This document shows positions 3,094-59,201 of a stretch of DNA of 64,000 nt, piece by piece. The notes under the pieces were generated by a model. That model was not told the DNA's origin, did not search any database, and saw only the letters and a program-made list of their open reading frames with translations. How positions within the stretch are numbered: the stretch's first letter is position 1; every line of letters begins with the position of its first letter. Both the position numbers and the translations under genes were made by a program. Origin of the DNA: Escherichia phage SKA64; sequence record OM362897.1; one strand, given 5' to 3'.

Positions 3094-3560
3094 ATTTTGC
3101 AGGATATGAACCTGTAGATCTTATTAATGGCGAGGGAGTTAGGTGCTCCCTCTGGGTTAGTGGTTGTAGCCACGGTTGTCGTGGCTGTTTTAACCAAAAA
3201 GCCTGGTCTTATTCTTATGGGAAACCGTTCACTCACGAAAATGTAGAGCAAGTTTTAAAAGATTTGTCAAGACCGTTTGTAAAAGGTTTAACAATTTTAG
3301 GAGGAGAGCCATTAGATCCACAGAATATTTACAATGTTAAAAACCTTATAGAAAAGGTTAGAGACGTTTATGGGTCAAGCAAAGATATAATGGTGTATAC
3401 AGGGTATACTTTTGAGGAAGTGCCTTTGTATATTAAAAATCTTGTTGACATTATTGTAGACGGAAAGTATGAAATAAACAATCCAACTACAAAACCTTTC
3501 AGAGGGTCAGATAATCAAAGATTATGGACCAAAACGGCAAGTGGTTGGCAATCAGATTAA
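3090..3560 (+). CDS. nrdG: anaerobic ribonucleotide reductase activating protein (radical SAM), NrdG
   Basis: 156 aa; Cys cluster CSHGCRGC (Cx3Cx2C) near N-terminus; TTG start overlapping nrdD stop, AGGGAG RBS upstream. Confidence 0.8.
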   Translation: MNFAGYEPVDLINGEGVRCSLWVSGCSHGCRGCFNQKAWSYSYGKPFTHENVEQVLKDLSRPFVKGLTILGGEPLDPQNIYNVKNLIEKVRDVYGSSKDIMVYTGYTFEEVPLYIKNLVDIIVDGKYEINNPTTKPFRGSDNQRLWTKTASGWQSD

Positions 3561-3573
3561 CTTAGGAGGTTTC

Positions 3574-3765
3574 ATGGTTACATATTTTGCTGTAGGAGAT
3601 AGAGTAGGGACGGCAGGAGAACTTTTGAAGAACAGTGATCGGGACGTTAAGGACATTCTTGCAACCCTTGTGGATATTTTACAAAGAAAAGAGTTGCTTT
3701 CTGATCGAGATGTTGCTAAATTACTTGATATCGGAGGAGATGAACTTCAAAGACTTCCATTTTAA
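3574..3765 (+). CDS. hypothetical small protein
   Basis: ATG at 3574 preceded by AGGAGG; the track ORF from 3541 (GTG) overlaps nrdG, so the internal ATG start is preferred. Confidence 0.5.
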   Translation: MVTYFAVGDRVGTAGELLKNSDRDVKDILATLVDILQRKELLSDRDVAKLLDIGGDELQRLPF

Positions 3766-3780
3766 GTGAGGAGATAAGTA

Positions 3781-4386
3781 ATGCAACATAGTGTAGTAGT
3801 CAACATGCCGAATAGTGGGGATAAATCTTTTGGTGTCCCTGCTAAAAAAGTGTGGAAAGCCCATTTTCATCTTACTTTATCTAACGTTAGTTCTGAAGAG
3901 TTGATGAAAGCAGCTAAGATTATTGGTGCCAAATGCACAACAATTGATTTACATCGGGATACAAAGTCTCAACGTGATCGTATGTTAACAAAGTATCAAA
4001 GCGATCTCGACACTACTTTAATGTTGCAGTGTGTAGAAAAACTTGAGAATGCAGGTTTCAATGTTGTTCGTTACAAACTGGAACGAATGTTTAAACATGT
4101 TGCCTGTGTTCTTTTCATGGATCTAAGTAAAGAAAATTACGGAGAAGTTCACATTAAGACTTCAGCAAGTGATCCCGAAGTAGAAACAAACTTCTTCCGT
4201 ATTTCTTCTAATGCTGAAGAAATTGATTACCGATTTTATAATGCTCGCTTATATTCCGCAGAAGATAAGTTGCGTTTCAATGAAGCGTATGATATGCTCT
4301 TGAACAGTGGGATACAGATAAAAGGCTACCACATAGAACAAGTGGTAGTGGACAGTAATCTTAACTTAGACGCATGGTGGGCTTAA
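3781..4386 (+). CDS. hypothetical protein (201 aa)
   Basis: ORF with GAGGAG RBS; first gene of the HAD/PRTase/macro run; no secure motif. Confidence 0.6.
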   Translation: MQHSVVVNMPNSGDKSFGVPAKKVWKAHFHLTLSNVSSEELMKAAKIIGAKCTTIDLHRDTKSQRDRMLTKYQSDLDTTLMLQCVEKLENAGFNVVRYKLERMFKHVACVLFMDLSKENYGEVHIKTSASDPEVETNFFRISSNAEEIDYRFYNARLYSAEDKLRFNEAYDMLLNSGIQIKGYHIEQVVVDSNLNLDAWWA

Positions 4387-4387
4387 T

Positions 4388-5044
4388 ATGACTATTAAAC
4401 ATATCTCTTTTGATGTATGGAACACACTGATCACAGCAAACTCCAATTACGCAGACATGCGAGCCTGGACTATCGCAAAATATGGAGATATTACGGAAGT
4501 TGAAGCAAGAGCAGCTTATAAAAAGATCAAAAAGGAACTGGATAATGCAGCACTTCAAGGCAAAGCCGAGTGTGCAGCATACGCCTGGGAAAGACTTGGT
4601 TCTGAACTTGGGATAACGCCTTGGAAGTCTGCAAAGCTTCGTTTCGAGTGTGAACAGTGGTTCCTTAAGTTTCCACCACACGTAGCCGTAGATCTGCCGA
4701 TGTACTTGCTGTATCTTTCTGGGCGTTATGATTTGAGTATTAAGAGCAATACCAACTTCATATCAGGGGATATTCTGCGTCGTGCTTGTAAGTTTGATAG
4801 TTGGAATTGTTTTGAGTTCACCCATTTCTCGGATGAAGCTTTACTTTGTAAACCAGATCCGCGATTCTTTGCTCGCACGCTCACGTATTCTCCGATCCCT
4901 CTGTTAGGGCACGAAGTGTTGCACGTAGGCGATAGTGAAGAATATGATGGAAAATGTGTTGACTTAGGGTTTAACTTCTGTCATATTAAGAACCCTAACG
5001 ACTTACTAGAGAAACTTAAAAGAGGAGAAATTGTAAATGCGTAA
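4388..5044 (+). CDS. HAD-like hydrolase (tentative)
   Basis: N-terminal FDVWNTL (variant HAD motif I) and C-terminal VGDSEEYD (HAD motif IV-like); assignment by motif only. Confidence 0.45.
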   Translation: MTIKHISFDVWNTLITANSNYADMRAWTIAKYGDITEVEARAAYKKIKKELDNAALQGKAECAAYAWERLGSELGITPWKSAKLRFECEQWFLKFPPHVAVDLPMYLLYLSGRYDLSIKSNTNFISGDILRRACKFDSWNCFEFTHFSDEALLCKPDPRFFARTLTYSPIPLLGHEVLHVGDSEEYDGKCVDLGFNFCHIKNPNDLLEKLKRGEIVNA

Positions 5045-5864
5045 TCAAACTCAAATTTTTGCAAATAAATTTGATGACCTGGAAACTGCTACTTTTGATA
5101 TCCAAGATTATTCAAAATTGAAATTTGGTAGTAACCAAGCTGCGCGTCGTATGGGTAAAGAATTGGCACTTCAGTTTTTTGCTCAAGTGGCAATGAAACA
5201 TATTGGGGAACAATTTGTTATCATTCCTTCTCCTTACAACCATGTGCATAATGCTGCAACAATGATGACAGATCATTTTATTAATTACTTCAATATGTTG
5301 CAAGCACAATATGATCAAGGTCGTTCAGCAGAACTGGACATTATTCATCGTAAAGTTAGCTATATCAACGATTATGGTTTCTTGGATAAAGCTAGTCGTA
5401 AGAAACTTATTGATGGGGATACATTCTACTGTAACAAAGAATTCTGGGGTGATAAGAAGCTTGTGTTTATTGATGATGTAAATATCACTGGAACTCATGA
5501 AGACAAACTGATTGAGATCCTTGATGAAAATCAAGTTAAAAATGATGTTTACTTCTTGTATTTTGCAAAATACGAAGGTAATCAAGCAGATACCGAAGCT
5601 AAACTGAATTTTAATTATATTAATACACCAGAAGCGTTTGTTAAAATGATTAATGAAGAACGTGATGCACAGTGTCTTGTTCGTCCTATTAAGTATCTTA
5701 TGGGCCAAAATCACGAAGACTTCAAAATCATTCTTAGCCAATTACCACACTACTATGTAGAGCAACTTTTCTTCGGATGTTTGGGAGAAGGTTACAACCG
5801 AATTTCAAAGTATGCCGAAAACTTTGAATTCTTGGATCGTTACACAAAACAACACATTCTGTAA
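5037..5864 (+). CDS. phosphoribosyltransferase-like protein (type I PRTase fold)
   Basis: PRPP-binding signature LVFIDDVNITGTHE (hydrophobic run, DD, TG-T); ATGCGTAA overlap with upstream gene. Confidence 0.55.
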   Translation: MRNQTQIFANKFDDLETATFDIQDYSKLKFGSNQAARRMGKELALQFFAQVAMKHIGEQFVIIPSPYNHVHNAATMMTDHFINYFNMLQAQYDQGRSAELDIIHRKVSYINDYGFLDKASRKKLIDGDTFYCNKEFWGDKKLVFIDDVNITGTHEDKLIEILDENQVKNDVYFLYFAKYEGNQADTEAKLNFNYINTPEAFVKMINEERDAQCLVRPIKYLMGQNHEDFKIILSQLPHYYVEQLFFGCLGEGYNRISKYAENFEFLDRYTKQHIL

Positions 5865-5877
5865 TAAGGAGCTAAAA

Positions 5878-6351
5878 ATGCTTAAAATGAAAACAGGTAA
5901 TCTTATTGATGCCGCTAAAGCAGGTGAAGTAACTGTTATTGCTCATTGTTGCAATTGTATGTGTAATATGGGGGCAGGTATTGCCCCACAAATCAAACGA
6001 GCATTTCCTTACGCATATGCAGCAGACTTAGACACAATGGCTGGTGATCAAAGTAAACTAGGTTGTTTTAGTTTAGGGGTGCCAGACGAACAATCAGATC
6101 CTTTGGTATATAATCTATACGGGCAGTATCGTTATGGATACAATGCTAAAGGTCGTCAGTTGGACTATGATGCACTTTACGATGCACTAATAGCTATGGC
6201 TAACGATTTGCTTCTCCGTGACCAAAAATGTAAGATCGGCTTACCTATGATTGGCGCTGGATATGCTGGAGGTAATTGGGCTATCATCCAAGTGATGATT
6301 GAAGAAACTTTAGTAAAAACAGGTCACGATGTGACTATTTATAAACTTTAA
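5878..6351 (+). CDS. macro domain protein (ADP-ribose binding/processing family)
   Basis: GNLID...VIAHCCNC...MGAGIA...IKRAF and later IGLPMIGAGYAGG match macro-domain motifs; start set at ATG 5878 with AAGGAG RBS rather than track start 5812. Confidence 0.6.
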   Translation: MLKMKTGNLIDAAKAGEVTVIAHCCNCMCNMGAGIAPQIKRAFPYAYAADLDTMAGDQSKLGCFSLGVPDEQSDPLVYNLYGQYRYGYNAKGRQLDYDALYDALIAMANDLLLRDQKCKIGLPMIGAGYAGGNWAIIQVMIEETLVKTGHDVTIYKL

Positions 6352-6363
6352 GAGGAGATTAGT

Positions 6364-6585
6364 ATGGGTGTTTTTGCAGGTATTGTTGCAGTGGTAAGCT
6401 TTTTTGTTATTGCTTTTATGCTTAGTTTGATTCCAGCTTGGTTACTGTTGCTGGCTTACAACTATGTTGCTGAAGTTATGGGTCATGCAGATATCACTGT
6501 CCCAGTAACCTTCTGGACCGTGGTTTGTGTTTCGTTTATTCTGGCTGTATTACGAGGAATCTTTTCCTCTCATTCAACAAAATAA
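6364..6585 (+). CDS. small hydrophobic membrane protein (73 aa)
   Basis: GAGGAG RBS; two predicted transmembrane helices. Confidence 0.55.
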   Translation: MGVFAGIVAVVSFFVIAFMLSLIPAWLLLLAYNYVAEVMGHADITVPVTFWTVVCVSFILAVLRGIFSSHSTK

Positions 6586-6588
6586 GTG

Positions 6589-6616
6589 TTGACATAGTTC
6601 TTAAAAAGAGTAAGAT
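6589..6616 (+). promoter_or_regulatory. sigma70-like promoter (TTGACA-16-TAAGAT) upstream of TerC gene
   Basis: Exact TTGACA -35 in the intergenic gap, acceptable -10 at 16-nt spacing; a 7-bp hairpin (GCGGGGA/TCCCCGC, about 6629-6647) lies in the short leader. Confidence 0.45.
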
Positions 6617-6664
6617 ATATCACATGAAGCGGGGAATAGTTCCCCGCAAAGAGAGGAGAAAAGA

Positions 6665-7639
6665 ATGCAACTTGGTTTCCCCATTATTGATGTAGTTGTT
6701 TTAGTTGGTATTTTAGCATTGTCTATTGGTATCGATTTCTTTGGTCACAAAGAAAATAAAGAAATTTCATTCAAATCCGCAGTTGATTGGTCGATCTTTT
6801 GGATTGGTGTATCATTAGCTTATTATGGTTTTGTATACTTCCAACATGGTGCCGATTTTGCTAACTTGTTTTTAAGTGGATATGTGTTGGAAAAATCTTT
6901 GTCGGTAGATAACTTAGTAGTATTTGTAGCAGTATTCGCAAGTTTTGGTATTAAAAGCACACACTTGCAGCACAAGATTCTACTTTGGGGTATTGCAGGT
7001 GCGATTGTCTTCCGAGGTGTGTTTGTAGCAGTAGGCACTTACTTGTTAAGTTTGGGCTGGTATGTTAATATCTTCTTCGGTGCGGTCATCCTTTTCTGTG
7101 CAGCTAAAATGGTATTTGCTGGAGATAATGACGCAGAAGTTGATTACTCTAAACACTGGGCTACCCGTATTGTTCGTAAACTGTTCCCTGTATCTAATAA
7201 AATGGATGGGGAGAAGTTCTTCACAATCGAAAATGGTGTTCGTGTAGCAACTCCAGCTTTGGTTTGCGTATTCGTGATGGAAATGGTGGATGTAATCTTT
7301 GCAGTAGATTCGGTTCCAGCGGTGATCGCAGTGACACAAGAACCCCTACTTGTATTCTCTTCGATGTTATGTGCAATCTTAGGTCTACGTGCTCTGTTCT
7401 TTGTTCTTAGTGTCGCACTGAAGTATCTGGTTCACTTGGAGAAAGCAGTTATTGTGGTTCTGGTGTTTGTAGGCGTTAAACTGATGTATCACCCGTTTGC
7501 AGAAACATTGCATGAGAAAATGAGTTTCCTGCCAGCACATATTGATCCAACTATTAGTATGTATATCGTGCTTGGTACTTTGGCCCTTGGTGTTATTGCA
7601 AGCTTTATCTTCCCTGAAAAAGAAGAAGCTACTATTTAA
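6665..7639 (+). CDS. TerC-family integral membrane protein
   Basis: 324 aa polytopic membrane protein containing YVLEKSLSVDNLVVF, matching the conserved E-x-SLSVDN signature recalled for the TerC family. Confidence 0.7.
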   Translation: MQLGFPIIDVVVLVGILALSIGIDFFGHKENKEISFKSAVDWSIFWIGVSLAYYGFVYFQHGADFANLFLSGYVLEKSLSVDNLVVFVAVFASFGIKSTHLQHKILLWGIAGAIVFRGVFVAVGTYLLSLGWYVNIFFGAVILFCAAKMVFAGDNDAEVDYSKHWATRIVRKLFPVSNKMDGEKFFTIENGVRVATPALVCVFVMEMVDVIFAVDSVPAVIAVTQEPLLVFSSMLCAILGLRALFFVLSVALKYLVHLEKAVIVVLVFVGVKLMYHPFAETLHEKMSFLPAHIDPTISMYIVLGTLALGVIASFIFPEKEEATI

Positions 7640-7645
7640 TAAATG

Positions 7646-7670
7646 AGCCTCCTTCGGGAGGCTATTTTAT
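7646..7670 (+). terminator. rho-independent terminator
   Basis: Stem AGCCTCC/GGAGGCT with TTCG loop followed by ATTTTAT just after TerC stop. Confidence 0.6.
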
Positions 7671-7681
7671 AGGAGAGACTT

Positions 7682-8032
7682 ATGAGTAATTTTGATGAAA
7701 TTCAAGAACTTGTTTGGGATTTATCTGGTGATGTGGATTACATTTCAGATTATCTTTCAAAAGTTTACCCTGGGGTAAGCGTTATGATTGTGACCAAAGA
7801 TCCAATTAGTTTGCCTCCCAATGTTGTAGCTTGTTGTGGAAGTGGTTCAGGAGAAGTAGAGCCTGTATCTCGTTGGGAATTAACTAAAGCTGTTTCAAAA
7901 CGAAACGGTGAAGTTTTGAATATTGATATTGAGCAAATATGGACTTCTCCAGCAGCCAAATGGAATGATCCAAATGGTTGGGATTTGTTCTTCTGGGATA
8001 ATGAGACTGATGATGAGGTGTTTTTAAAATGA
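7682..8032 (+). CDS. hypothetical protein (116 aa)
   Basis: ORF with RBS; acidic C-terminal half. Confidence 0.55.
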   Translation: MSNFDEIQELVWDLSGDVDYISDYLSKVYPGVSVMIVTKDPISLPPNVVACCGSGSGEVEPVSRWELTKAVSKRNGEVLNIDIEQIWTSPAAKWNDPNGWDLFFWDNETDDEVFLK

Positions 8033-8274
8033 AATACTTGTTGGTTGTGTTTGAAAATATCTGTTTTGCAATAGGGTTGTTTGTTGTAATTTTTGTATTG
8101 ACAAGCGTAATCAACGGCAGTAAAGTGAGTTTATACCGAGATGGAGAGCAACTTTATTGCTTCTCTGGAGATTTCAAACACAGATGTATTAATAGCCAAA
8201 ACGAGGAAAGCAAATATGAAAAAACTAGCCCTGATTTTAATTGGTTGTATCTTTTTAACAGCTTGCGAGGATGA
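8029..8274 (+). CDS. hypothetical small membrane protein (uncertain)
   Basis: ATGA start/stop overlap with upstream gene; hydrophobic N-terminus; overlaps the lipoprotein gene in another frame. Confidence 0.3.
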   Translation: MKYLLVVFENICFAIGLFVVIFVLTSVINGSKVSLYRDGEQLYCFSGDFKHRCINSQNEESKYEKTSPDFNWLYLFNSLRG

Positions 8275-8653
8275 AACAAATCCTGCACAATACCAACAAC
8301 CTCCTCAACAATACGCTCAACAAGGATCTGACGGAGATACAACTATTATCAACAATGGTGGCGGTTCTAGTAGTAGCGGTGTTGGTGAGTTTGCTACAGG
8401 TATGTTGTTAGGGCATATGATGAGTGGCGGTAGTAATCGTAGCAGTGGGGATTATAACGATAACAGAACGATTATTAATAAGCATTATAATACACCTAAA
8501 CCGAAAACTAATTTTTATGGTAAGCCTAAACAAGAGATAAAAACTTATGAAAAGCCGAGACAAACTTTTAAAACAAATAGTAGCTATACAACTCGTAAAT
8601 CTTACAATAGCCCTTTAAGTAAAAAGAGTTCATCTCGTAGCAAGCGACGTTAA
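8216..8653 (+). CDS. putative lipoprotein (Gln/Gly/Ser-rich, basic C-terminus)
   Basis: MKKLALILIGCIFLTAC signal peptide with lipobox LTAC; GAGGAAAG RBS; internal ATG chosen over track start 8141. Confidence 0.6.
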   Translation: MKKLALILIGCIFLTACEDETNPAQYQQPPQQYAQQGSDGDTTIINNGGGSSSSGVGEFATGMLLGHMMSGGSNRSSGDYNDNRTIINKHYNTPKPKTNFYGKPKQEIKTYEKPRQTFKTNSSYTTRKSYNSPLSKKSSSRSKRR

Positions 8654-8667
8654 TAAGGAGAAAAACA

Positions 8668-9261
8668 ATGACAATTTCTATTCGTACTTCCATTACAGGT
8701 GTTAAAAGTTTGCCTAATGCTTTGCAAATCACACGTGCTTTGAGGGATACGTTCTCTGCTGTGGATGAGCATAAGATGCTCGATAATCTCTCAAATTGGC
8801 CCTATTTTCATTATTTTAAAAATGAAGACGACGAGTTTATAGACGCTGTTTCTTACGGTTATGATTTCGGTAAGGAGGTTTCCCCTGAAGAATTTGTAGC
8901 TACGGTGTTCCCAAACGGTTTGCCTACTCGCAGTAAACGTAAAAAAGGACCAAAAAACAAGAAACGTGCTACTAATAAAGCTACCATTTTCTTTACTGAT
9001 GGCACACAATATACGATTAAAGACTTTGAAGAGGTATCTTATACAGCAGGTGGGAGTCTTTCTTTCTACACCATCAAAAAACAAAACTATACGTTCAGCC
9101 ATGTTTCTAACATGATTGAAATGTTAGTAGAAGATATTGAAAGCGTGGCTGTGTTAGGTATGCATAAAAGCTTTTTAATTACAAATATTTCAGATTTCAG
9201 TGCAAGTTTATCTGGCCCTGATTTTGAAGCCACGACCACGCATTTCGCTTTTAAGGTGTAA
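8668..9261 (+). CDS. hypothetical protein (197 aa)
   Basis: ORF with GGAGAAAAA RBS; no motif recognised. Confidence 0.55.
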   Translation: MTISIRTSITGVKSLPNALQITRALRDTFSAVDEHKMLDNLSNWPYFHYFKNEDDEFIDAVSYGYDFGKEVSPEEFVATVFPNGLPTRSKRKKGPKNKKRATNKATIFFTDGTQYTIKDFEEVSYTAGGSLSFYTIKKQNYTFSHVSNMIEMLVEDIESVAVLGMHKSFLITNISDFSASLSGPDFEATTTHFAFKV

Positions 9262-9264
9262 GTT

Positions 9265-9855
9265 ATGCATACCGAGAGAGACTTGCAACTCTTGTGGTGG
9301 GAAGTGATGCAGGAAATAAAAGAAGATTTTCCTGTTTACTACAACATGTTACGTGAAGCAGGATATAAAGCTTGTGTTAGAAACAAAGTGAATAACTCTT
9401 TCGGTTGGTGCAACTACCGAGATAAAATTGTTGTTGTAAATTGGCACTTGCATAAGAACTCCACAAGAGATATGATCGTGGATACAATGAAGCACGAAAT
9501 TGCTCATGCTATTGATGGTTGTATGGGTAAGTTTAGTAGGCACGGTGCTCATTGGCAAAAACTGGCAGCAGAATTAGGGGCTAATCCTAAAGCCACTTCC
9601 AAAGAGCCGTTGAACCACGAATATAAATATGTTCTTGTTCTGGTAGATAGGTTTGCGACAAGATGTGTTAGAGGTTATAATCGTAAACCTAATCGCATGT
9701 ACCCAGGTAAGCAACCTAATATGTGGTTGAAATCAGATAAAGAAGGGACCGAAGGAAAATTATGGTTGTATAAATGGGACGATTGGGTTAAAGTAGCTAA
9801 AGAGTACGGTGTTTCACCATATATAAGAGATGCAGAAGAGGAGAATGAAGAATGA
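9265..9855 (+). CDS. SprT-like zinc metallopeptidase domain protein
   Basis: IVDTMKHEIAHAIDG (HExxH zinc-binding motif in SprT-like context). Confidence 0.55.
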   Translation: MHTERDLQLLWWEVMQEIKEDFPVYYNMLREAGYKACVRNKVNNSFGWCNYRDKIVVVNWHLHKNSTRDMIVDTMKHEIAHAIDGCMGKFSRHGAHWQKLAAELGANPKATSKEPLNHEYKYVLVLVDRFATRCVRGYNRKPNRMYPGKQPNMWLKSDKEGTEGKLWLYKWDDWVKVAKEYGVSPYIRDAEEENEE

Positions 9856-10964
9856 CAAGTCCATTTTTAAAAGCAGCTACTGGTGGTCAGAAGAAGCCTG
9901 AAATGAGCGTATTTGCTGCAACAACAGATGCAAGTAAATCTGTATTCGCTCCAAGCGTGTTAGATGCCAGTCCTGTTTATGCACCAGCGGCACCGCAAGA
10001 AGTTCCAGTTTTGCCTTCTATGACCCGACAAGAGATTGAAGAGATTGGGGCAGAGGCAGGAACAACCTTGCGTTCCTTGAATGCCGAGGTGTTAAAACAT
10101 CAACGTAGTAATCAAGGCGATCAGATGAGTGAACGACTCACAGCTTTGATTAAACAGGCAAAACAACTTGATCCAAACTCTATTAAACAAAGCAAGGGTA
10201 TTACTAAACTCATTAAAAAAGTTATGGGTATGAAAGAAGACCTGTTCGGGGAGTTTGATAATGTTAATAACCGTATTGAAGAGTTGGTAAAGAACCTTCA
10301 AATGGATATTCGCAAAGAAGAAGATTCCTTGGTATATCTTGAAAAGCTACATCAAGCTATTGGACAATATGCTGCAAGTTTGAACCGAGATATGCAGCTT
10401 CTAACAGCAACCTATGAAAAAGAAGAACAAGCTTTGGCTGCTCTTCCAGAAGATGCAGTAGAACAGCGACAAGTGATCCGAGATACTTTGGATCTTCTGG
10501 AGATTCGTATTGCAGATTTAAAAGCATTGCGCCTACTGTGTGTCCAAATGGGACCGCGTGTACAAGGTATGCAAAAAGTTTCTGCAAGCTTAATGCGATC
10601 TGCGCGTAACATAGTAAATAATGTTATTCCTGCTTACTCTGCTAACTTCTCAATGTATATCGAGAGCTTACGTCAAATGAAAGCAGCAGAGACGCAGAAT
10701 AACGTTCTTGATGAATTTAACCTGGCAATTAAACTGGGTAGCGATCTTGCCACACAGAATCAGATCGAAGCAGCAGCACTGGCTAACCGTCAAGTGTTGG
10801 ATATTGAAACTCTGCGTCACGATCAGGAAAACTTGGTTAAGATGCTGGAAGAAACTAACCGCATCAATACGGAAGCCCGTGCTGCTCGTGTTGATTATAT
10901 TAATGAAGTTCAATCTCTGGAAGACGGGATGGTAGCTGCTGTGAAACGAGGGCTTGGTAAATGA
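9852..10964 (+). CDS. TelA/KlaA-like toxic-anion-resistance family protein (tentative)
   Basis: 370 aa, largely alpha-helical/coiled-coil, size and composition consistent with TelA; assignment supported mainly by TerC/TerD context. Confidence 0.4.
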   Translation: MTSPFLKAATGGQKKPEMSVFAATTDASKSVFAPSVLDASPVYAPAAPQEVPVLPSMTRQEIEEIGAEAGTTLRSLNAEVLKHQRSNQGDQMSERLTALIKQAKQLDPNSIKQSKGITKLIKKVMGMKEDLFGEFDNVNNRIEELVKNLQMDIRKEEDSLVYLEKLHQAIGQYAASLNRDMQLLTATYEKEEQALAALPEDAVEQRQVIRDTLDLLEIRIADLKALRLLCVQMGPRVQGMQKVSASLMRSARNIVNNVIPAYSANFSMYIESLRQMKAAETQNNVLDEFNLAIKLGSDLATQNQIEAAALANRQVLDIETLRHDQENLVKMLEETNRINTEARAARVDYINEVQSLEDGMVAAVKRGLGK

Positions 10965-11158
10965 GAATCCGTATCTATATAATTGATGAAGACATTGGTG
11001 TCCGTTATGATGACGAAAAACGATTCGCACCGATGGGAGGCATATATCCCCCAAGTGTTCTAGCAGTTTGTCGTGATTGTTATATTTATGAAGGTTGTCG
11101 TAACTTCCGTAAATTCGAACTCCTTGCAGATATTGACTTCAATGAGGAGGAGGAGTAA
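10961..11158 (+). CDS. hypothetical small protein with Cys pairs
   Basis: 65 aa, CRDCYIYEGC; ATGA overlap with upstream gene. Confidence 0.45.
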   Translation: MRIRIYIIDEDIGVRYDDEKRFAPMGGIYPPSVLAVCRDCYIYEGCRNFRKFELLADIDFNEEEE

Positions 11159-11331
11159 TGAAAATATTACGAGTGAATATTGAAACTGCTTGGTGTGGAT
11201 GCAATGAGGTTGTGGATATCGAAATTGAAGATGATATGTCTCAAGAGGATATAGAAGATCTTGCACACGAAACCTTTCAGGATTATTGTAATTACGGGTT
11301 CCATATTTTAGAGGAGGAAGAAGATGTATAA
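11158..11331 (+). CDS. hypothetical small acidic protein (57 aa, below track cutoff)
   Basis: ATG overlapping upstream TAA, GAGGAGGAGG RBS; found by manual translation. Confidence 0.35.
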   Translation: MKILRVNIETAWCGCNEVVDIEIEDDMSQEDIEDLAHETFQDYCNYGFHILEEEEDV

Positions 11332-11722
11332 TCCAACAGGTATTCTTTTAAAACTTACAGTAACAGACCCTACTCTTTTCATCAAGTTAGCAAGTGGTGA
11401 AGTTTATGAAGTAATGAAAGATGATGACGGTTGGTGTTATCTTTGTGGCTACTTCCTCTGTGATGCAGAAGAGTTAGAATCCATTGTAACTAAAGGTTTT
11501 TATGAAGAACCAGGGTTCCGTGTGGAAACTACGCAGAAACCTGATACCATTACGTTGACTCGACAGGAACTGATCACAATCATTGAAGATGCTTTTATTG
11601 ATGGCTGGAATACACAAGATAATGACTGGGGTGGACCCGAAGCTTTTCTGGAACATCATAAAGCTTATGGAGAATTTTGTGAAACCACTGTAGCTCTTGA
11701 TAATCTGAAGGAGGGTTTGTAA
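11324..11722 (+). CDS. hypothetical protein (132 aa)
   Basis: ORF with GAGGAGGAAG RBS. Confidence 0.55.
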   Translation: MYNPTGILLKLTVTDPTLFIKLASGEVYEVMKDDDGWCYLCGYFLCDAEELESIVTKGFYEEPGFRVETTQKPDTITLTRQELITIIEDAFIDGWNTQDNDWGGPEAFLEHHKAYGEFCETTVALDNLKEGL

Positions 11723-12285
11723 TGGGTTGTTTTAGCTTTTTGTGCAAAGAATCGGGCAAAGCTGCCCTTTCTACTTCTTTCGACGGATCACCTTGCTACC
11801 TCTTTCTTTTGAAGGACGGTGTTGTTATTGAAGAGATGTATGGCAACTATGATAGTTATGGTTGTGTTTTCTCTGGAAAGGAGGATGAAAATGGTGTTCG
11901 TGAACGATTTGAATGGGCTATGGATTGGAGTAAGGTTTGTGATTTGATGCATTCCTCAAATCCAAGAGACGGTATCGCTATGGTGCTGGAAGAGTACTTT
12001 ACAGGTGAAATCCCTACAGAACAATCTGACGGAGATCCTAACCAAGGTTGGGGTGATGGTGAAGAAGATCCAGATTGTTTTTTCAGCACAGAAAAGAATA
12101 AGTTTAAACGTGTTGACAACCCTTATCACAAAGTGCATAATACTCTCATTGAAACAGAAGATGACAAGATGGAAATTGAAGAAGATGATCCTCTTGTAAC
12201 ACTTCCTATAAGTGAGTTACAAAAGATCACTAAGGAAGCTTACGATTTGGGCTTCAAAATTGGTAGAGGAGGTATGCGTGTTTAG
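11722..12285 (+). CDS. hypothetical acidic protein (187 aa)
   Basis: ORF with GGAGGG RBS; Asp/Glu-rich. Confidence 0.55.
   Translation: MGCFSFLCKESGKAALSTSFDGSPCYLFLLKDGVVIEEMYGNYDSYGCVFSGKEDENGVRERFEWAMDWSKVCDLMHSSNPRDGIAMVLEEYFTGEIPTEQSDGDPNQGWGDGEEDPDCFFSTEKNKFKRVDNPYHKVHNTLIETEDDKMEIEEDDPLVTLPISELQKITKEAYDLGFKIGRGGMRV
12113..12141 (+). promoter_or_regulatory. possible sigma70-like promoter (TTGACA-17-CATAAT), intragenic
   Basis: Consensus hexamers at proper spacing about 140 nt upstream of the paralog-A/vWA gene pair, but inside a CDS. Confidence 0.3.
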
Positions 12286-12556
12286 ATTCAATATTCAAGA
12301 AGAAAAAAGTCAAGATTTACCTATTGCTTTCGAAGATCTTGACGTAGGGGCAACATTCATGTATTATGATGCCTATGAAGACGCAGGGTTGGATACGTAC
12401 CGTAACTTGGTGTTCATTAAAAATTCCACAAACAGTGCGATTTGTATTAATGGATCACTAGCACAACGAGGCTATACTCATTGCATCCCACCAGATACAA
12501 ATATGGTGGAAGTAGATTTAGAAGTTACCAATATTACACTTAAGAAGGAGAAATAA
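12278..12556 (+). CDS. small conserved protein, paralog A (pairs with 13578..13847)
   Basis: GTG start with AGAGGAGG RBS; shares DLDVGxTF...GLD...ITLK pattern with paralog B. Confidence 0.5.
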   Translation: MFRFNIQEEKSQDLPIAFEDLDVGATFMYYDAYEDAGLDTYRNLVFIKNSTNSAICINGSLAQRGYTHCIPPDTNMVEVDLEVTNITLKKEK

Positions 12557-12557
12557 T

Positions 12558-13352
12558 ATGTCCGAGAAAATCAGCCTGAAAAAACGTCAAGAAAACCTTG
12601 CTTTCTCTCTGAAAAAGAATAAGAACCTGAATGAAGGTAAGATTGTTCTTCGTGTAGCATGTGCTCTAGATATTTCTGGTAGTATGCATGGTCTATATTC
12701 TAGTGGGGTAGTGAGTGATTTTGTAGGTAAACTGCTTCCTTTTGGTATGTTGTTCGACGATAATCAACAAATTGATATGTGGGCCTTCAATACGAGTTCC
12801 CAAGAGCTTACTCCAGCAACAGCAGACGTTTACGACGACTATGTTGGTAAATGTATGCGTAATGTTCGTATCGGAGGTGGAACAAATTACGCCCCTGTAA
12901 TGGCAGATATCTACGATGAGTATTTTGGCACTGTTACCAAATATATTACCACTAAACAAGTGGTACAAGAGGAGGCTCCAAAGAAAGGCTTCTTTAATCG
13001 TCTGCTTGGTAAAACTGAAACAGTGTCTGTAGAGCGTGAAAAAGTTGTAGCTGTATCAGAACCAGGTGCTGACGTTACCCCTGGTGTTGTATTCTTCCAG
13101 ACGGATGGTGAGAATGGTGATCCTAGTGCTGTTCGTCGTCTTATCGAAGAGAATAAGAATAAACCTATTTATTGGTTCATGGTTGGCGTTGGTAATGAGA
13201 AGTTTGGCTTCCTGAAAGAACTGGCAAATGCTTATGATAATGTTGGTTTTATTGGCATTAAAGATTTAGACTTGACAGATTCAGAGCTTTATGACAAACT
13301 CTTATCTGAAGAGTTCGGAGAGTGGGTTGTTAAAGTAGGTGCTAAAAAATGA
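12558..13352 (+). CDS. TerF-like protein: TerD-type N-terminus fused to von Willebrand factor A domain
   Basis: N-terminal KISLKK segment like TerD; MIDAS motif LDISGSM plus GGGTNY and FFQTDGENGD. Confidence 0.6.
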   Translation: MSEKISLKKRQENLAFSLKKNKNLNEGKIVLRVACALDISGSMHGLYSSGVVSDFVGKLLPFGMLFDDNQQIDMWAFNTSSQELTPATADVYDDYVGKCMRNVRIGGGTNYAPVMADIYDEYFGTVTKYITTKQVVQEEAPKKGFFNRLLGKTETVSVEREKVVAVSEPGADVTPGVVFFQTDGENGDPSAVRRLIEENKNKPIYWFMVGVGNEKFGFLKELANAYDNVGFIGIKDLDLTDSELYDKLLSEEFGEWVVKVGAKK

Positions 13353-13597
13353 TCGACGAGCTTGCCTCTCAAGTCATAGAAAATTATTGGCGCGAGAGAG
13401 AAGCTTTCATTATGCGCAGTCTCAAAGAGTATTTCATTGGGACTGTGCGAATGGAAGATATTGTAAGTAGAGTGGAGATTCATGTATGGCCCGATTATGA
13501 AGAATGGGTTGACAAAGAAAATGAAAATGCTATAATTCTTCGTATATACAAACCGGAGATAACATTAGGAGGAAGAAGTGTTAAACTTCGAAATTGA
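13349..13597 (+). CDS. hypothetical protein (82 aa)
   Basis: ATGA overlap with upstream gene; contains a promoter-like sequence near its end. Confidence 0.45.
   Translation: MIDELASQVIENYWREREAFIMRSLKEYFIGTVRMEDIVSRVEIHVWPDYEEWVDKENENAIILRIYKPEITLGGRSVKLRN
13509..13536 (+). promoter_or_regulatory. possible sigma70-like promoter (TTGACA-16-TATAAT), intragenic
   Basis: Perfect -35 and -10 hexamers upstream of paralog B and TerD, inside a CDS. Confidence 0.35.
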
Positions 13598-13847
13598 TGA
13601 GCAAAAAGTAAATAAACGATGCCTTACCATTAAAGATTTGGATGTAGGAGATACTTTCGTCTATGAAAATGCATTTGACGAAAATGGTTTAGACCTTAGT
13701 GAAATCATTGTTTATTTAAAAGTAGATGATGGGGAAAATGATTATTCTGCTGTAGAACTAAACCATCATGCACAATTAGTATCAATCCAAAGCACATCTA
13801 AGCTTTTGGAAGTAGAATTGACTGTAACTGGTATTACACTTAAATAA
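13578..13847 (+). CDS. small conserved protein, paralog B (pairs with 12278..12556)
   Basis: GTG start with AGGAGG RBS; shared motif pattern with paralog A. Confidence 0.5.
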   Translation: MLNFEIDEQKVNKRCLTIKDLDVGDTFVYENAFDENGLDLSEIIVYLKVDDGENDYSAVELNHHAQLVSIQSTSKLLEVELTVTGITLK

Positions 13848-13862
13848 TAGAGGAGACAAAAG

Positions 13863-14465
13863 ATGACTGATAAAATTTCCCTGAAAAAAGGCTCTAGCGA
13901 AAAAATTTCCCTGAAGAAGGTTGCTCCGGCTCTGAAAGAACTGCGCCTGGAATTCTCTTGGAAGTCTGATTCTAAACTGGATCTGGATGTAAGTGCACTG
14001 GTTTGTCGTCACAATGCCGCTGGCAATCCTGAAATGCTGTCTGCACGTCATCTTGTTTGCTATGCTAACAAGTTTGATCCTGAACGTTCTACCTTCGCTG
14101 GTGACGATGTTCGTGATGGCACTGGCAGCATGGAGCAGATCGATATTACTCTGGCTAAAATCTCTCCTGATGCACAAGAGATTGCCTTTGTTCTGACCAT
14201 TGATGATGATACAGGTCTGAAACGTTTTGGTCATGCTTCTGAAGGTATGCTTAAAATCTTCGACTCCGAGCGCAATGTGGAAATTCTGGATTTTGACTTC
14301 CTGGCTCCTGAAGTAGCTGGCAACACAATCTGCCACGTGGCTTCCTTGGTTCGTGAAGATGGGGAATGGAAGCTGAAAGCATATGGTGTAGGCAAAGCTG
14401 GTCTGGATATTTGTGATGTGGTGATGGCCTTCGGTGGTAAAAAAGAATGGTATGAATGTCCATAA
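13863..14465 (+). CDS. TerD-domain stress protein
   Basis: 200 aa; N-terminal KISLKKG...LDLDVSALV and GDDVRDGTG...IDDD pattern typical of TerD; codon usage biased to CTG/CGT/GGC. Confidence 0.75.
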   Translation: MTDKISLKKGSSEKISLKKVAPALKELRLEFSWKSDSKLDLDVSALVCRHNAAGNPEMLSARHLVCYANKFDPERSTFAGDDVRDGTGSMEQIDITLAKISPDAQEIAFVLTIDDDTGLKRFGHASEGMLKIFDSERNVEILDFDFLAPEVAGNTICHVASLVREDGEWKLKAYGVGKAGLDICDVVMAFGGKKEWYECP

Positions 14466-14483: not shown

Positions 14484-14503
14484 GAGGGGGAGAAATCCCC
14501 CTC
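14484..14503 (+). terminator. stem-loop / possible weak terminator after TerD
   Basis: GAGGGGG-AGAAAT-CCCCCTC hairpin; weak U-tract, so efficiency uncertain. Confidence 0.35.
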
Positions 14504-14532
14504 TTGCAATAAAGCCTCTATCGTGTTATACT
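14504..14532 (+). promoter_or_regulatory. sigma70-like promoter (TTGCAA-17-TATACT)
   Basis: Intergenic, immediately after hairpin and upstream of hydrolase gene. Confidence 0.5.
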
Positions 14533-14564
14533 AGAAATTCGTTAACTTAAAAAGGAGGCAAAAT

Positions 14565-15086
14565 TTGCTGATAAAAAACTTTGTAACAGTTGCGTTACTA
14601 TCCTTAACTGCTTTTACATTTACACCTGTTGTGGCGAAAGCCGAAGCTGCAAACGTAAAAACCGCTAAAGTAGTTCACAAATGTACAAAGCAATATAATG
14701 ATAAAATTCTATTAGCTTGTGCAATTTACGCAGAAGGTCGCGGTCTGGGTAAAAAAGGAATGAATGCCGTTGGGAATGTGGTAATCAACAGAAGAAATGA
14801 TACCTACTTCCCTAACACAGTCAGAGGGGTCTTGTTCCAGAAAGGGCAATTCTCATATGCGAAAACTTTTAACGTAACAGAGAAAGATAAGTGGCAGGAA
14901 GCAAAAGCAATAGCGGAGCGTTTACTTTATTTAGAGAAACATTTTCCTGAATTGCGGTCTGTTTTAGATGTTACTAAAGGTGCTCTATACTTCAAGAAAC
15001 GGAATATAAGGACACACTGGGAACGTGATATGCGTCTTGTTTATCGAGATAAAGTGCATGGTTTCTATCTACCAAAGGGGAGTTAA
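14565..15086 (+). CDS. secreted cell-wall hydrolase, SleB-like domain (candidate endolysin)
   Basis: TTG start with AAGGAGG RBS; Sec-type signal peptide ending AKA-EA; AIYAEGRG...VGNVVINR...QKGQFSYA matches SleB-type hydrolase motifs. Confidence 0.65.
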   Translation: MLIKNFVTVALLSLTAFTFTPVVAKAEAANVKTAKVVHKCTKQYNDKILLACAIYAEGRGLGKKGMNAVGNVVINRRNDTYFPNTVRGVLFQKGQFSYAKTFNVTEKDKWQEAKAIAERLLYLEKHFPELRSVLDVTKGALYFKKRNIRTHWERDMRLVYRDKVHGFYLPKGS

Positions 15087-35489: not shown

Positions 35490-35825
35490 TTACCCCTTAT
35501 TCTGTGTACGTTTAACTATGTCATCTAGCATCATTTGGATAGTCGCATTCTTGAGGTCCATAATCTTTTCAATTTTTTGCTCAAGGGTGTTGTTATTTGC
35601 CATTAATGTAGAGTTAATTTGATTTAGCATCTGGGTAAGTTCGGCTTTAGTTGCGTAAGTTGATTCAACAAAGACCAACTTCTTCTCTAGCTCTCGACTT
35701 TTCTCCTCCATTTCCTCAAGATCAGAGCCGAATTTATCCATTTTTTGTTTGAAAAAGAACCAGATGACTCCGATTAAAGGGATTATTGCATCCTTTGCAA
35801 GTCCCCATGCTTCTTGAAATTCCAT
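35490..35825 (-). CDS. hypothetical membrane-anchored coiled-coil protein (111 aa)
   Basis: N-terminal hydrophobic helix IIPLIGVIWFFF then charged helical region. Confidence 0.4.
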   Translation of the reverse strand: MEFQEAWGLAKDAIIPLIGVIWFFFKQKMDKFGSDLEEMEEKSRELEKKLVFVESTYATKAELTQMLNQINSTLMANNNTLEQKIEKIMDLKNATIQMMLDDIVKRTQNKG

Positions 35826-38083: not shown

Positions 38084-39571
38084 TTACACTCCATACTCGT
38101 AAGAAATGTTATCAAGGTCAAAAGAAGGGACAACATTATAAGCAGGAACTATATTATTCTCTGTATATTTACTGTCATCCTCAGTATTAAGTTTAACATA
38201 AACACGAAGAGAAGTCAAGCGTCCAAAAGCAAGTGCTGCATAAATAACACCTTTGATTTGATCGTTCGTTACTGAAGAACCTAACTCAAAGTAAGCTTGC
38301 AGGTTTTGTAAAGCTTCTACGATGTTTTGTTTTTCTGTTCCACTTAAAGTTGTTCCGTTGACAGTTTGATAAACAAGTTTTACGGAATACGTAGCAGAAG
38401 CACCAGGAGAAAAACGAATAATTTCTTGTCCTCCGTCTTCTGTTGTAACAGTTATGTTGGTTGTTCCATGTGTCAAACTGTTGATTGGTTTAGTTTTGTA
38501 AATAACTTCAGCAACTTCTTCAGCACTCCCTCCATAAACTATAGTCTGGAAAGTCATAGCTGGAGCATGTTCTTGATCATGTAACGTAGGGTTATCATAA
38601 ATCTTCACCTTAGTAACACCATCTGTAAGTAGCAGAGCTTTCACAATAGCTGCTCGTGTCCCTGCGTTAGCTTCATCAACGTTGTCATTGAAACGAGAGC
38701 GGAATTCTGCGTCTGTCTCAACATCTCGACCAGGAGAAAATGAATAGAAGTTACCACTGTCAAGATAACCTGTAAAGGTAGAAGATATCCCTGTAATAGA
38801 CTCCACACCAACAGGATTGTATCCTTTCTCTGCTGCAACTACCGGAATCTCACTCCACTTGGTTCCAACCGGAACACTAGCATAAAATTTAATGGGAGTT
38901 ACCAGTCCCACTGGCGTATCACTGGTTAAAGAAGTAAAACCAACTGATAAGTTACCCGAATCAGAAAATACAAGACTACGATCAGCTTCTGTTAAATTCG
39001 CCTTGATAAAAGTTTCAAGATCTGTTATAAATGTAGAAGAACCAGGTGCAAGTGTTTTACTGTTTAGTCCTCCGTCTACCGCACTTTGTGCATAAAAAGT
39101 AATATTTGGAACACCTGTAGCAGTTGCATTAGCACGAGAGATTTGATAAGCTGCAATCTTAGCATTCAACATAGTTGGTGTGCTAACATAGTAGTTCATA
39201 TCACTATCAGAGTTGAAGTAAATATCCGTGCCTAACTCATAAGTCCAAGCTGCTTTGTTATTACTCTTAACATAGGCATAACCTGTACTTGCTGCTGCCC
39301 CTGCTCGATAGAAACCGCGTTTAGAAAAGATTTCGTCAAGATAAATACCTTCTGCACCATCCAGTGTTTGAGTATTATAAACCCCTTGCATACCTTCCCA
39401 CAATGTGTAATCTGTGTATGCAATTATTCTAAACAGTTGTCCGATCACAGTATCTTCCGAAGTGGCTGCATCTGCACCAAATGTGTTTTTTACTGCTGTC
39501 ATGTAGTTGTTTAAAACATCGTCAAAAGTCGGGATTACAAATCCCGCATCTGTCAAACCATATTCGTCCAT
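38084..39571 (-). CDS. baseplate wedge-like structural protein (495 aa)
   Basis: Size and position. Confidence 0.35.
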   Translation of the reverse strand: MDEYGLTDAGFVIPTFDDVLNNYMTAVKNTFGADAATSEDTVIGQLFRIIAYTDYTLWEGMQGVYNTQTLDGAEGIYLDEIFSKRGFYRAGAAASTGYAYVKSNNKAAWTYELGTDIYFNSDSDMNYYVSTPTMLNAKIAAYQISRANATATGVPNITFYAQSAVDGGLNSKTLAPGSSTFITDLETFIKANLTEADRSLVFSDSGNLSVGFTSLTSDTPVGLVTPIKFYASVPVGTKWSEIPVVAAEKGYNPVGVESITGISSTFTGYLDSGNFYSFSPGRDVETDAEFRSRFNDNVDEANAGTRAAIVKALLLTDGVTKVKIYDNPTLHDQEHAPAMTFQTIVYGGSAEEVAEVIYKTKPINSLTHGTTNITVTTEDGGQEIIRFSPGASATYSVKLVYQTVNGTTLSGTEKQNIVEALQNLQAYFELGSSVTNDQIKGVIYAALAFGRLTSLRVYVKLNTEDDSKYTENNIVPAYNVVPSFDLDNISYEYGV

Positions 39572-39813
39572 TAGTCATCCTCTTTGGTAGATTGTGATCT
39601 GCCCCAGCGTAAATCAATAAGATTTTTCATGAGGCGAGAAGGAGTTATCATGAAAACAAAAGCCCAACCCATCCATTCAGGAATTTCTTTTTCTATTCCT
39701 AAAAAGATAAACATGCCTGTCATAACCGACATGCCTACAGCGTTCCAGACTTTCGTAGAACTGACTTTATTATCAGGATATGTACAGAACATACCTATTA
39801 AAAATTTTCTCAT
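39571..39813 (-). CDS. small membrane protein (80 aa)
   Basis: Two hydrophobic segments and charged C-terminus. Confidence 0.4.
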   Translation of the reverse strand: MRKFLIGMFCTYPDNKVSSTKVWNAVGMSVMTGMFIFLGIEKEIPEWMGWAFVFMITPSRLMKNLIDLRWGRSQSTKEDD

Positions 39814-40154
39814 AGTGCGTTCTCATTACTTTTTAAATCACGATATACAGCTAATTCCCCAAGGTCTACAGAACCCGCTGAATGCACAAGTACAGCAGCA
39901 CTAAGACTAATGGCAGTAGTACCTGGGGCAATATCAGCAGGTAGGGAATACGCCCTTTGCGTCTCCTTATCATAGATAACCTTATACCCACCCAAATCCA
40001 CACCAATCTGGACAATGGTGTACGCGATAGCTGCAACGTAGAACCATTCGTTCAGTGTAAATCCGAAGAAGAACCGACTGGCACCATCAGCCGCAGCGGT
40101 CCCGACGATAGGAGAGGCTTTAAGGATCTCATTCTTGAAGTCTAACTCAATCAT
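39810..40154 (-). CDS. hypothetical membrane protein (114 aa)
   Basis: Hydrophobic central region. Confidence 0.4.
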   Translation of the reverse strand: MIELDFKNEILKASPIVGTAAADGASRFFFGFTLNEWFYVAAIAYTIVQIGVDLGGYKVIYDKETQRAYSLPADIAPGTTAISLSAAVLVHSAGSVDLGELAVYRDLKSNENAL

Positions 40155-40201
40155 AAAAACTCCAGTTTAAAGCGGGTCGTCCTTGACCCAAAGTTGTTAC
40201 C

Positions 40202-42751: not shown

Positions 42752-42759
42752 TTTTACTC

Positions 42760-51770: not shown

Positions 51771-51829
51771 GATAACCTCGTAGTAATGATAATGCCAAAA
51801 GGAAGATGCAAGATCTTCCCATATTGATT

Positions 51830-51859
51830 ATTGTAACACATATAGAAACTTCGTGTCAA
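51830..51859 (-). promoter_or_regulatory. sigma70-like promoter on minus strand (TTGACA-18-TACAAT)
   Basis: Intergenic, just after the tape-measure terminator. Confidence 0.4.
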
Positions 51860-51865
51860 GGGAAA

Positions 51866-51890
51866 CGAAAAAACCCCGCCGAAGCGAGGT
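51866..51890 (-). terminator. rho-independent terminator after tape measure gene
   Basis: Minus-strand RNA stem CCUCGC/GCGGGG (one G-U pair) with UUCG loop followed by TTTTTT. Confidence 0.55.
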
Positions 51891-51896
51891 ATTTTA

Positions 51897-59190: not shown

Positions 59191-59201
59191 ACAGAGTTCT
59201 A

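Follow-up and report, generated by a model that had tools for sequence, protein, structure and literature searches.

A predicted Sec-exported SleB-type murein hydrolase of Phapecoctavirus, probably accessory to a classical lysis system encoded elsewhere in the genome

Background

Bacillus SleB, a germination-specific lytic transglycosylase (PDB 4F55, 4FET), is made with a signal peptide and requires the muramic-delta-lactam of the spore cortex. Lys44 of the Oenococcus phage fOg44 is exported by Sec by means of a cleavable signal peptide and is the only endolysin of that phage, whose host is Gram-positive. In the SAR endolysins P1 Lyz and phage 21 R21, which act in a Gram-negative host, a hydrophobic N-terminal segment directs Sec-dependent export.

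We analysed a 64,000-nucleotide stretch of the genome of Escherichia phage SKA64, hereafter referred to as the window, and compared a SleB-like gene that it carries with these systems. In nucleotide comparisons, many Phapecoctavirus genomes matched the region at 99.0-99.7% identity, and the window belongs to this group of phAPEC8-like E. coli myoviruses (genomes of ~150 kb; subfamily Stephanstirmvirinae). The SleB-like gene is 99.8% identical in DNA, over all 522 nt, to the 'putative cell wall hydrolase SleB' of phAPEC8 (JX561091 / NC_020079), and at a threshold of at least 95% identity it was found in 64 records. The phAPEC8 gene and its ~64 Phapecoctavirus orthologues (e.g., tuntematon gp109) are thus the same gene, and the neighbours in the phAPEC8 group match those in the window, with a TerD-like gene upstream, small ORFs and glycosyltransferases downstream, and no substantive difference.

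The presence of a SleB-like enzyme is therefore ordinary and already known: annotation of the gene goes back to the phAPEC8 genome of 2012, and both the two lytic enzymes and the signal peptide of a homologue are in the literature. A Phapecoctavirus genome announcement lists two lytic proteins with PF00959 and PF07486 domains (PMC10793346), and two lytic enzymes in such phages are also stated in PMC12210895. Our literature search found no experiment on the SleB-like protein or on any Phapecoctavirus mutant. The reading that we favour, with a probability of roughly 0.7, is that the protein is a Sec-exported accessory periplasmic murein hydrolase and not the principal endolysin, acting beside a classical lysis system whose genes are dispersed.

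Identity of the SleB-like protein

The following features were assigned to the gene and its catalytic part.

14565..15086, + strand: complete coding sequence of a SleB/CwlJ-family (Hydrolase_2) cell-wall hydrolase (Pfam, PHROG, PDB and AlphaFold/Foldseek matches)
14649..15083, + strand: mature catalytic domain of ~145 aa, 16.8 kDa and pI 10, predicted to be periplasmic (domain, fold and conservation)
14733..14735, + strand: GAA codon of Glu57, the predicted catalytic glutamate in IYAEGRG (invariance in 104 homologues and SleB alignment)

The gene is real, and its product is a SleB-type cell-wall hydrolase by domain, fold, catalytic residue and conservation. The initial annotation had placed a gene with a SleB-type catalytic region here, and the ORF reading of the window agrees exactly, giving 173 aa plus a stop codon from a TTG start 6 nt downstream of AAGGAGG. 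The catalytic assignment was likewise borne out, as PF07486 (Hydrolase_2) matched residues 62-168 over profile positions 3-100 of 100 (E = 1.9e-17; 64.1 bits against a gathering cutoff of 27 bits), PHROG 938 'endolysin' matched the 173-aa protein (E = 1.2e-18), and the only PDB matches in a phmmer search were Bacillus SleB 4F55 and 4FET. In these alignments the phage motif IYAEGRG (Y55-A-E57-G-R) falls on VYGESRG of SleB. The family is large (17,198 representatives at E <= 0.001), and Y55, E57, R76 and Q95 were invariant across an alignment of 104 diverse homologues, with E57 occupying the position of the catalytic Glu in the motif Y-x-E-(S/A/G)-R-G.

A first AlphaFold model built from an alignment of 18 close relatives was poor (pLDDT 57.8) and was replaced by one from the 104-sequence alignment, which reached a pLDDT of 86.7 and left residues 1-30 alone disordered or of low confidence. 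A Foldseek search of the PDB with this second model returned 4F55 and 4FET only (prob 1.0; TMt 0.71-0.76), consistent with a SleB fold. The alignment of relatives further showed that C40 and C52, both in the mature part, are invariant.

The phage protein shares the catalytic fold and the Y-x-E motif with Bacillus SleB, but is only 26-28% identical to it and has neither a YpeB partner nor a spore context. It also lacks the N-terminal peptidoglycan-binding domain expected of a SleB orthologue, consisting only of a signal peptide and one catalytic domain, and its gene neighbours are TerD-like and uncharacterised. Unlike the substrate of Bacillus SleB, the murein of the phage's host contains no muramic-delta-lactam. 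Given the need of SleB for this modification, activity of the phage protein on ordinary E. coli murein is assumed here, and the protein is presumably muralytic on it.

Predicted signal peptide and export

One further feature covers the N-terminus.

14565..14648, + strand: predicted signal peptide, residues 1-26 or 1-28 (hydropathy, -3/-1 rule, AxA conservation and low model confidence at 1-30)

The protein has a sole hydrophobic segment, at residues 6-24 (Kyte-Doolittle 1.9-2.2), with K4 before it; P21 is followed by two possible cleavage sites, between AKA and EA and between AEA and AN. The parts can be read as an n-region MLIK, an h-region NFVTVALLSLTAFTF and a c-region TPVVAKA(EA), from which cleavage by SPase I is predicted after A26 or A28. 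In an alignment of 17 relatives (59-89% identity), the small residues at -3 and -1 (AxA) were kept, while the c-region was the most variable stretch of the whole protein. The low AlphaFold confidence at residues 1-30 fits a signal peptide. A hydrophobic N-terminal start was also found in 110 of the 150 most similar family representatives. The n-h-c anatomy, P21 and the AxA kept in 17 relatives support the cleavable signal peptide claimed in the initial annotation, and in these sequence features the protein resembles the cleavable type I class of Lys44. Sec export and cleavage of the SleB-like protein are therefore likely.

These observations support reading the protein as a SleB-type murein hydrolase exported by Sec, and export of such an enzyme should need no holin, as in Lys44, which shares the predicted cleavable signal peptide and holin-independent export. 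The SleB-like homologue CB7_83 of Pectobacterium phage CB7 is reported to have a signal peptide and to be toxic upon expression in E. coli, although that study does not show the data (PMC7344957). Holin-independent export, as proposed initially, is thus favoured by the signal-peptide anatomy, the AxA, the two invariant cysteines of the mature part and the CB7_83 report; the part of the proposal that did not survive is that the protein serves as the phage's lysis enzyme without holin or spanins.

SAR endolysins and the phage protein have in common an N-terminal hydrophobic segment for Sec-dependent export, and we considered whether the segment might stay uncleaved and tether an inactive enzyme, which depolarisation by a holin or pinholin would release and activate. 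Eight of the 20 h-region residues are Thr, Ser or Ala, the column identity of the h-region is 0.92 against 0.78 in the mature part, and the N-terminal TM segment of a more distant homologue from Pakpunavirus lacks an obvious cleavage site, all of which would suit a SAR-type enzyme. However, a SAR domain is an uncleaved, weakly hydrophobic TMD rich in Gly, Ala and Ser, whereas the h-region here has no Gly and contains three Phe, three Leu and four Val. Known SAR domains (P1 Lyz, R21) are less hydrophobic than this segment with its Kyte-Doolittle values of 1.9-2.2. In addition, the AxA that follows is preserved within an otherwise freely varying c-region, the N-terminal segment has no Cys, the catalytic family is a different one, and the rV5-like and T5-like homologues carry textbook cleavable signal peptides. 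A SAR-type mechanism is accordingly very improbable.

Classical lysis genes of the phage group

The initial annotation had described the SleB-like protein as the only recognisable lysis enzyme in the window and had noted that no holin or spanin gene adjoins it. Both descriptions hold: ten tail/baseplate proteins of the window were without a muralytic Pfam domain, and the flanks of the gene encode the TerD-like protein and soluble uncharacterised proteins, with no membrane or lysis proteins among them. The puzzle of a missing holin partner that was drawn from this is nevertheless an artefact of the window, given that a lysozyme and Rz/Rz1 are encoded in a near-identical genome and a T7-type holin homologue lies in the window itself. 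The gene appeared to encode the phage's sole lysis enzyme because just 64 kb of a genome of roughly 150 kb was seen.

The complete annotation of phage tuntematon, 99.4% identical to the window over the region, was read as a reference. This genome encodes a soluble T4 e-type lysozyme (166 aa, PF00959, 124983..125483) that shows the T4 e signature and lacks a hydrophobic N-terminus. It also encodes an overlapping Rz/Rz1 spanin pair adjoining terL (97928..98555), in which an Rz-like i-spanin of 130 aa with an N-terminal TMD overlaps a 114-aa o-spanin lipoprotein with an LMMTGC lipobox. In tuntematon the lysozyme gene is ~77 kb away from the SleB-like gene. By the offset of the portal gene, the window ends just before terL, with the spanins ~2 kb and the lysozyme ~29 kb past its right end. 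A comparable placement has been described for CB7, rV5 and PVP-SE1, whose spanins adjoin the terminase gene and are not in a lysis cassette (PMC7344957).

At a threshold of at least 95% identity, the lysozyme gene was found in 64 phage records, including OR062526.1 (the closest to the window) and phAPEC8, a count equal to that of the SleB-like gene. With relatives at least 99% identical, the lysozyme and spanins are most likely present in the window's own phage. Unlike the Lys44 system, Phapecoctavirus thus has a separate soluble lysozyme and spanins, and the SleB-like protein is not a sole endolysin, the T4 e-type lysozyme occurring in all 64 close relatives.

Holin candidates in the window

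Two ORFs on the minus strand bear on the question of a holin.

39810..40154, - strand: 114-aa chimeric ORF, homologue of the T7 gp17.5-family class II holins (PF10746, E = 7.5e-20; PHROG 920 holin)
39571..39813, - strand: 80-aa membrane protein with two TMDs and a charged C-terminus, a holin/antiholin candidate only (PHROG 1322 'membrane protein')

In the first ORF, residues 4-52 match PF10746, and over residues 1-60 the identity to gp17.5 of T7-like phages is 87%, while the C-terminal half is similar to tail-spike N-termini. The ORF lies outside the SleB locus, most Phapecoctavirus genomes do not conserve it, and just 2 database records contain it at full length. For the stretch 40003..42366, nucleotide identity of ~80% was seen to the 'tail spike | holin class II' region of two T7-like podophages, Pisces and Penshu1, and the highest coverage of 39500..42800 by any Phapecoctavirus record was 31%. 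Given this similarity and the low Phapecoctavirus coverage, we conclude that the window's phage acquired a tail spike and a holin together, as a cassette of T7-like origin. The holin fragment itself may or may not be functional. As a conserved holin partner, the ORF was rejected, being part of a T7-like tail-spike cassette import and full-length in only 2 records, and no conserved Phapecoctavirus holin was identified. The second ORF, which gave no Pfam match, had been listed as a candidate in the initial annotation; the holin homologue directly adjoins it upstream and had been omitted there.

Homologues in other phage lineages

Homologues in Vequintavirinae (bas54_0065, bas48_0065 of Bas48, CB7_83 and CR3_087 of Cronobacter phage CR3) and T5.083 of T5 have the same architecture as the window's protein, a signal peptide and a single Hydrolase_2 domain. 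These Vequintavirinae and T5-like hydrolases are 34-37% identical to it (35-37% for Vequintavirinae) and are likewise second murein hydrolases apart from the lysis genes. The predicted signal peptide is VKIKIFAIILSALLSLPVVA followed by AP in Vequintavirinae, and MKAALLLTAALAFSFNSHA followed by TH in T5.083. Their neighbourhoods are unlike that of the window, the gene lying between a MoxR ATPase and rIIA/rIIB in Vequintavirus and in the tRNA region in T5. In all four phage lineages compared, the homologue has early-type or DNA-metabolism genes around it, and the lysis genes lie elsewhere. Each of the other lineages has further endolysins: the modular PVP-SE1gp146 and lysozymes in rV5-like phages, T5.040 in T5, and gp28/gp29 in PAK_P3/PAK_P4, with holin and spanin candidates downstream. 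Transcriptomic work on PAK_P3/PAK_P4 assigns the endolysin to a gene other than the SleB-like homologue. The classical endolysin of Vequintavirinae and T5-like phages differs from the T4-like lysozyme of Phapecoctavirus.

Genetic evidence comes from the Vequintavirus Bas54, in which HIDEN-SEQ found the SleB-like gene bas54_0065 to be non-essential (32 of 36 TA sites hit), whereas the classical endolysin bas54_0202 (0 of 24 TA sites hit) and both spanins were essential (10.1101/2025.11.20.689424). The protein of bas54_0065 is 37% identical to the window's SleB-like protein and comes from another subfamily, and the Bas54 endolysin shows no sequence similarity to the T4-like lysozyme of Phapecoctavirus. 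Carried over from Bas54, the gene would probably be dispensable in Phapecoctavirus as well. In T5, CRISPRi-ART gave T5.083 the score 'Not Fit'; because T5.040 (lys), the true endolysin, received the same score, the assay is uninformative on this point. Two further transposon-mutagenesis preprints contained nothing on this gene family. The initial annotation had named in advance what would count against it, namely a classical endolysin and holin elsewhere and a gene dispensable for lysis. A classical endolysin and a holin were indeed found elsewhere, while dispensability was seen for the 37%-identical Bas54 homologue only.

With this evidence we weighed the opposite assignment, in which the SleB-like protein would be the effective endolysin, exported by Sec and causing lysis without a dedicated holin in the manner of Lys44, and the T4-like lysozyme would be redundant or otherwise employed. 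The combination of signal peptide and muralytic domain, the RefSeq name 'endolysin', the toxicity of CB7_83 on expression and the lack of an identified conserved Phapecoctavirus holin all point in this direction, and the T4-like lysozyme is sometimes annotated as 'baseplate hub + tail lysozyme'. However, that lysozyme is a soluble 166-aa T4 e-type enzyme in every close relative and is too small for a gp5-type baseplate protein. There are also Rz/Rz1 spanins, the SleB-like gene is unlinked to lysis genes in four lineages, and Bas54 can do without its SleB-like homologue but not without its classical endolysin. We consider this assignment unlikely. An accessory role for the SleB-like protein is preferred because the lysozyme occurs in every close relative, spanins are present and the Bas54 homologue is dispensable.

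We also searched for a plasmid link to conjugation or type IV secretion, which was rejected, the matches being limited to distant chromosomal-type 'cell wall hydrolase' proteins and one probable misfiled phage.

Putative transcription and translation signals

Three features precede the gene.

14484..14503, + strand: GC-rich hairpin GAGGGGG-agaaat-CCCCCTC, after the TerD-like gene and abutting the promoter-like element (sequence reading)
14504..14532, + strand: sigma-70-type promoter-like element with TTGCAA, a 17 nt spacer, TATACT and an extended -10 TG (scan; putative function)
14552..14558, + strand: Shine-Dalgarno sequence AAGGAGG, 6 nt before the TTG start (sequence reading)

The 99-nt gap that holds these features is the longest in the + strand block. 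We compared it with 12 homologous loci and found that a G-rich/C-rich hairpin at the equivalent site and GGAGG with the TTG start were kept in them, and that the -35 CTTGC(A/C)A and the -10 TGnTAnAnT were kept in 12/12, whereas the surrounding intergenic DNA diverges. The hairpin itself has no U-tract, is absent from the terminator scan list and was not called a terminator. Conservation of the -35, -10, Shine-Dalgarno and TTG amid diverging DNA suggests that the SleB-like gene is probably the first of a separate transcription unit and that its translation begins at a weak start codon. Near-consensus sigma-70-like promoters equally precede portal, head and tail genes, and inference of early or late timing from the promoter type was rejected, since equally good promoters stand before structural genes.

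The 5' coding end of the gene is conserved at the nucleotide level. Among codons for identical amino acids, the fraction with synonymous differences was 0.11-0.20 at codons 2-21 and 0.18-0.28 at codons 30-43, compared with 0.45-0.54 at codons 44-173 and 0.43-0.48 in the c-region. RNAfold and RNAalifold proposed two stems, one sequestering the Shine-Dalgarno sequence and the other a long-range pairing of 13 bp between the two conserved blocks. RNA structure was unsupported as a cause (z = +0.32; counts no better than those of shuffles): the proposed stems showed no compensatory changes, and the stem is broken in the most divergent homologue. Conserved rare codons for Sec targeting and a recombination block are possible alternatives.

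Proposed role in infection

In our favoured reading, that of a Sec-exported accessory hydrolase, the gene would have a sigma-70-like promoter of its own and open a block that continues into small uncharacterised genes, glycosyltransferases and a primase/helicase, and would be translated from the conserved weak TTG start. The product would comprise a cleavable type I signal peptide and then a single catalytic domain with the lytic-transglycosylase-type Glu57. Export and cleavage would yield a basic enzyme of ~17 kDa acting on the sacculus from the periplasmic side, independently of a holin. Timed lysis would be left to the soluble, holin-requiring T4 e-type lysozyme together with Rz/Rz1, both encoded outside the window. 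The SleB-like enzyme would most likely remodel or pre-weaken the murein, with a conditional fitness benefit and no requirement for plaques. The accessory role, like the level and timing of expression, is what we infer from these comparisons.

A periplasmic role unrelated to lysis was considered as well, in which the enzyme would remodel murein and any lytic effect would be incidental; blocking superinfection, countering an envelope defence and supporting the Ter-like or glycosyltransferase neighbours are examples. Dispensability in the laboratory together with conservation across Stephanstirmvirinae, Vequintavirinae and Demerecviridae, despite differing endolysins, would be in keeping with such a role, as would the conserved promoter of its own and the weak TTG start, and the position between the MoxR ATPase and rIIA/rIIB in Vequintavirus. 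Synteny points the same way. In five of the six metagenomic relatives with a flank read, TerD is followed by a ~95-nt intergenic gap and the SleB-like gene; the sixth (L012) has a 204-aa gene between the two. The order is also kept in tuntematon, and a vWA-TerF gene lies upstream of TerD in the 4 metagenomic relatives read with wider flanks. However, synteny varies between lineages and phage gene neighbourhood is a weak guide to function, and the intact catalytic machinery is equally compatible with an auxiliary lytic role. Taken jointly, these lysis-unrelated roles are doubtful.

A broader, rather unlikely proposal is that Sec-exported SleB-type hydrolases form a conserved periplasmic auxiliary class in large virulent coliphages of the groups Stephanstirmvirinae, Vequintavirinae and T5-like Demerecviridae, dispensable for plaques and encoded apart from the lysis cassette. 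Rather than serving timed lysis, such enzymes might remodel host murein in the course of infection, for example to exclude superinfecting phages, evade defences or enlarge the cell, and the conserved TTG together with the nucleotide-level constraint on codons 1 to ~43 might keep their expression low.

The contrast between the RefSeq label 'endolysin' and the evidence for an accessory enzyme calls for caution in enzybiotic mining and in the annotation of lysis cassettes. Across records, the gene is labelled 'hypothetical protein', 'cell wall hydrolase', 'endolysin' (RefSeq) or 'spore cortex-lytic enzyme precursor'.

Genomic context of the SleB-like gene

We found that this virulent phage carries a Ter-like stress-response cluster (6665..14465, + strand), which includes the following genes.

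Members of the Ter-like cluster
6665..7639, + strand, TerC-like membrane protein
9852..10964, + strand, TelA
12558..13352, + strand, vWA-TerF-like protein
13863..14465, + strand, TerD

The SleB-like gene (14565..15086, + strand) lay directly downstream of TerD in five of the six metagenomic relatives for which the flank was read. Its neighbours differ between genera: in Phapecoctavirus, vWA-TerF and TerD precede it, whereas in Vequintavirus it is flanked directly by a MoxR ATPase region on one side and by rIIA/rIIB, labelled "membrane integrity protector", on the other.

Vequintavirus neighbourhoods of the SleB-like gene
3495..7190, Escherichia phage CarlMeissner (L004)
58858..62553, phage Bas54

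MoxR proteins are commonly partnered with vWA proteins, and thus the contexts of the SleB-like gene in both genera are envelope- or stress-related. A statement in PMC10698182 conflicts with the sequence features of the SleB-like protein and with the report on the CB7 homologue (PMC7344957).

Conservation at the 5' coding end

Across six homologous loci, the SleB-like gene showed suppressed synonymous variation at codons 2-21 and 30-43 (14565..14693; 0.11-0.28), against 0.45-0.54 over the remainder of the gene in the same loci. Near-invariant nucleotide blocks were present at this 5' end in all 12 homologous loci (12/12). Two structures predicted here, a stem sequestering the SD and a 13-bp long-range stem, found support in neither z-score nor covariation.

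Small proteins and the tail-spike region

Small proteins described below
6364..6585, + strand, 73-aa protein containing two or three hydrophobic segments, encoded shortly before the TerC-like gene
35490..35825, − strand, 111-aa protein of the tail-fibre module, annotated "lipoprotein" (PHROG 15210)
39810..40154, − strand, 114-aa ORF, gp17.5-type class II holin fused to a tail-spike N-terminal segment

The 73-aa protein, named only as a holin or spanin candidate in the initial annotation, is a member of PHROG 16065 (unknown function) with no match in a Pfam search, and it showed no link to lysis. Inspection of the 111-aa protein revealed no cysteine and no lipobox; its N-terminal TM segment leads into a coiled-coil-like region, a predicted topology resembling that of i-spanins.

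Residues 1-60 of the 114-aa ORF share 87% identity with the gp17.5-type class II holin, and the full ORF is present in only two database records. The DNA at 40003..42366 shares ~80% identity with phages Pisces and Penshu1, in a region labelled "tail spike | holin class II", and none of the Phapecoctavirus records covered more than 31% of 39500-42800. Together, 39810..40154 and 40003..42366 appear to be a tail-spike-plus-holin cassette that the phage acquired from a T7-like podophage.

Promoters and a gap in the structural region

Upstream of the portal, head and tail genes (− strand) lie near-consensus sigma-70-type promoters, in which TTGACA and TAnnnT are spaced by 17 nt and a TG is frequently found upstream. 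Early-type genes have such promoters as well; temporal classes are therefore not separable by promoter type in this phage.

Promoters preceding portal, head and tail genes
63900..64000, − strand
62241..62333, − strand
51771..51896, − strand

An apparently non-coding gap of 286 nt (53886..54171, − strand) separates the tail assembly chaperone gene (54172..54654) from the tape-measure gene (51897..53885). Its sequence looks coding, and it is therefore possibly a frameshifted extension of the chaperone.
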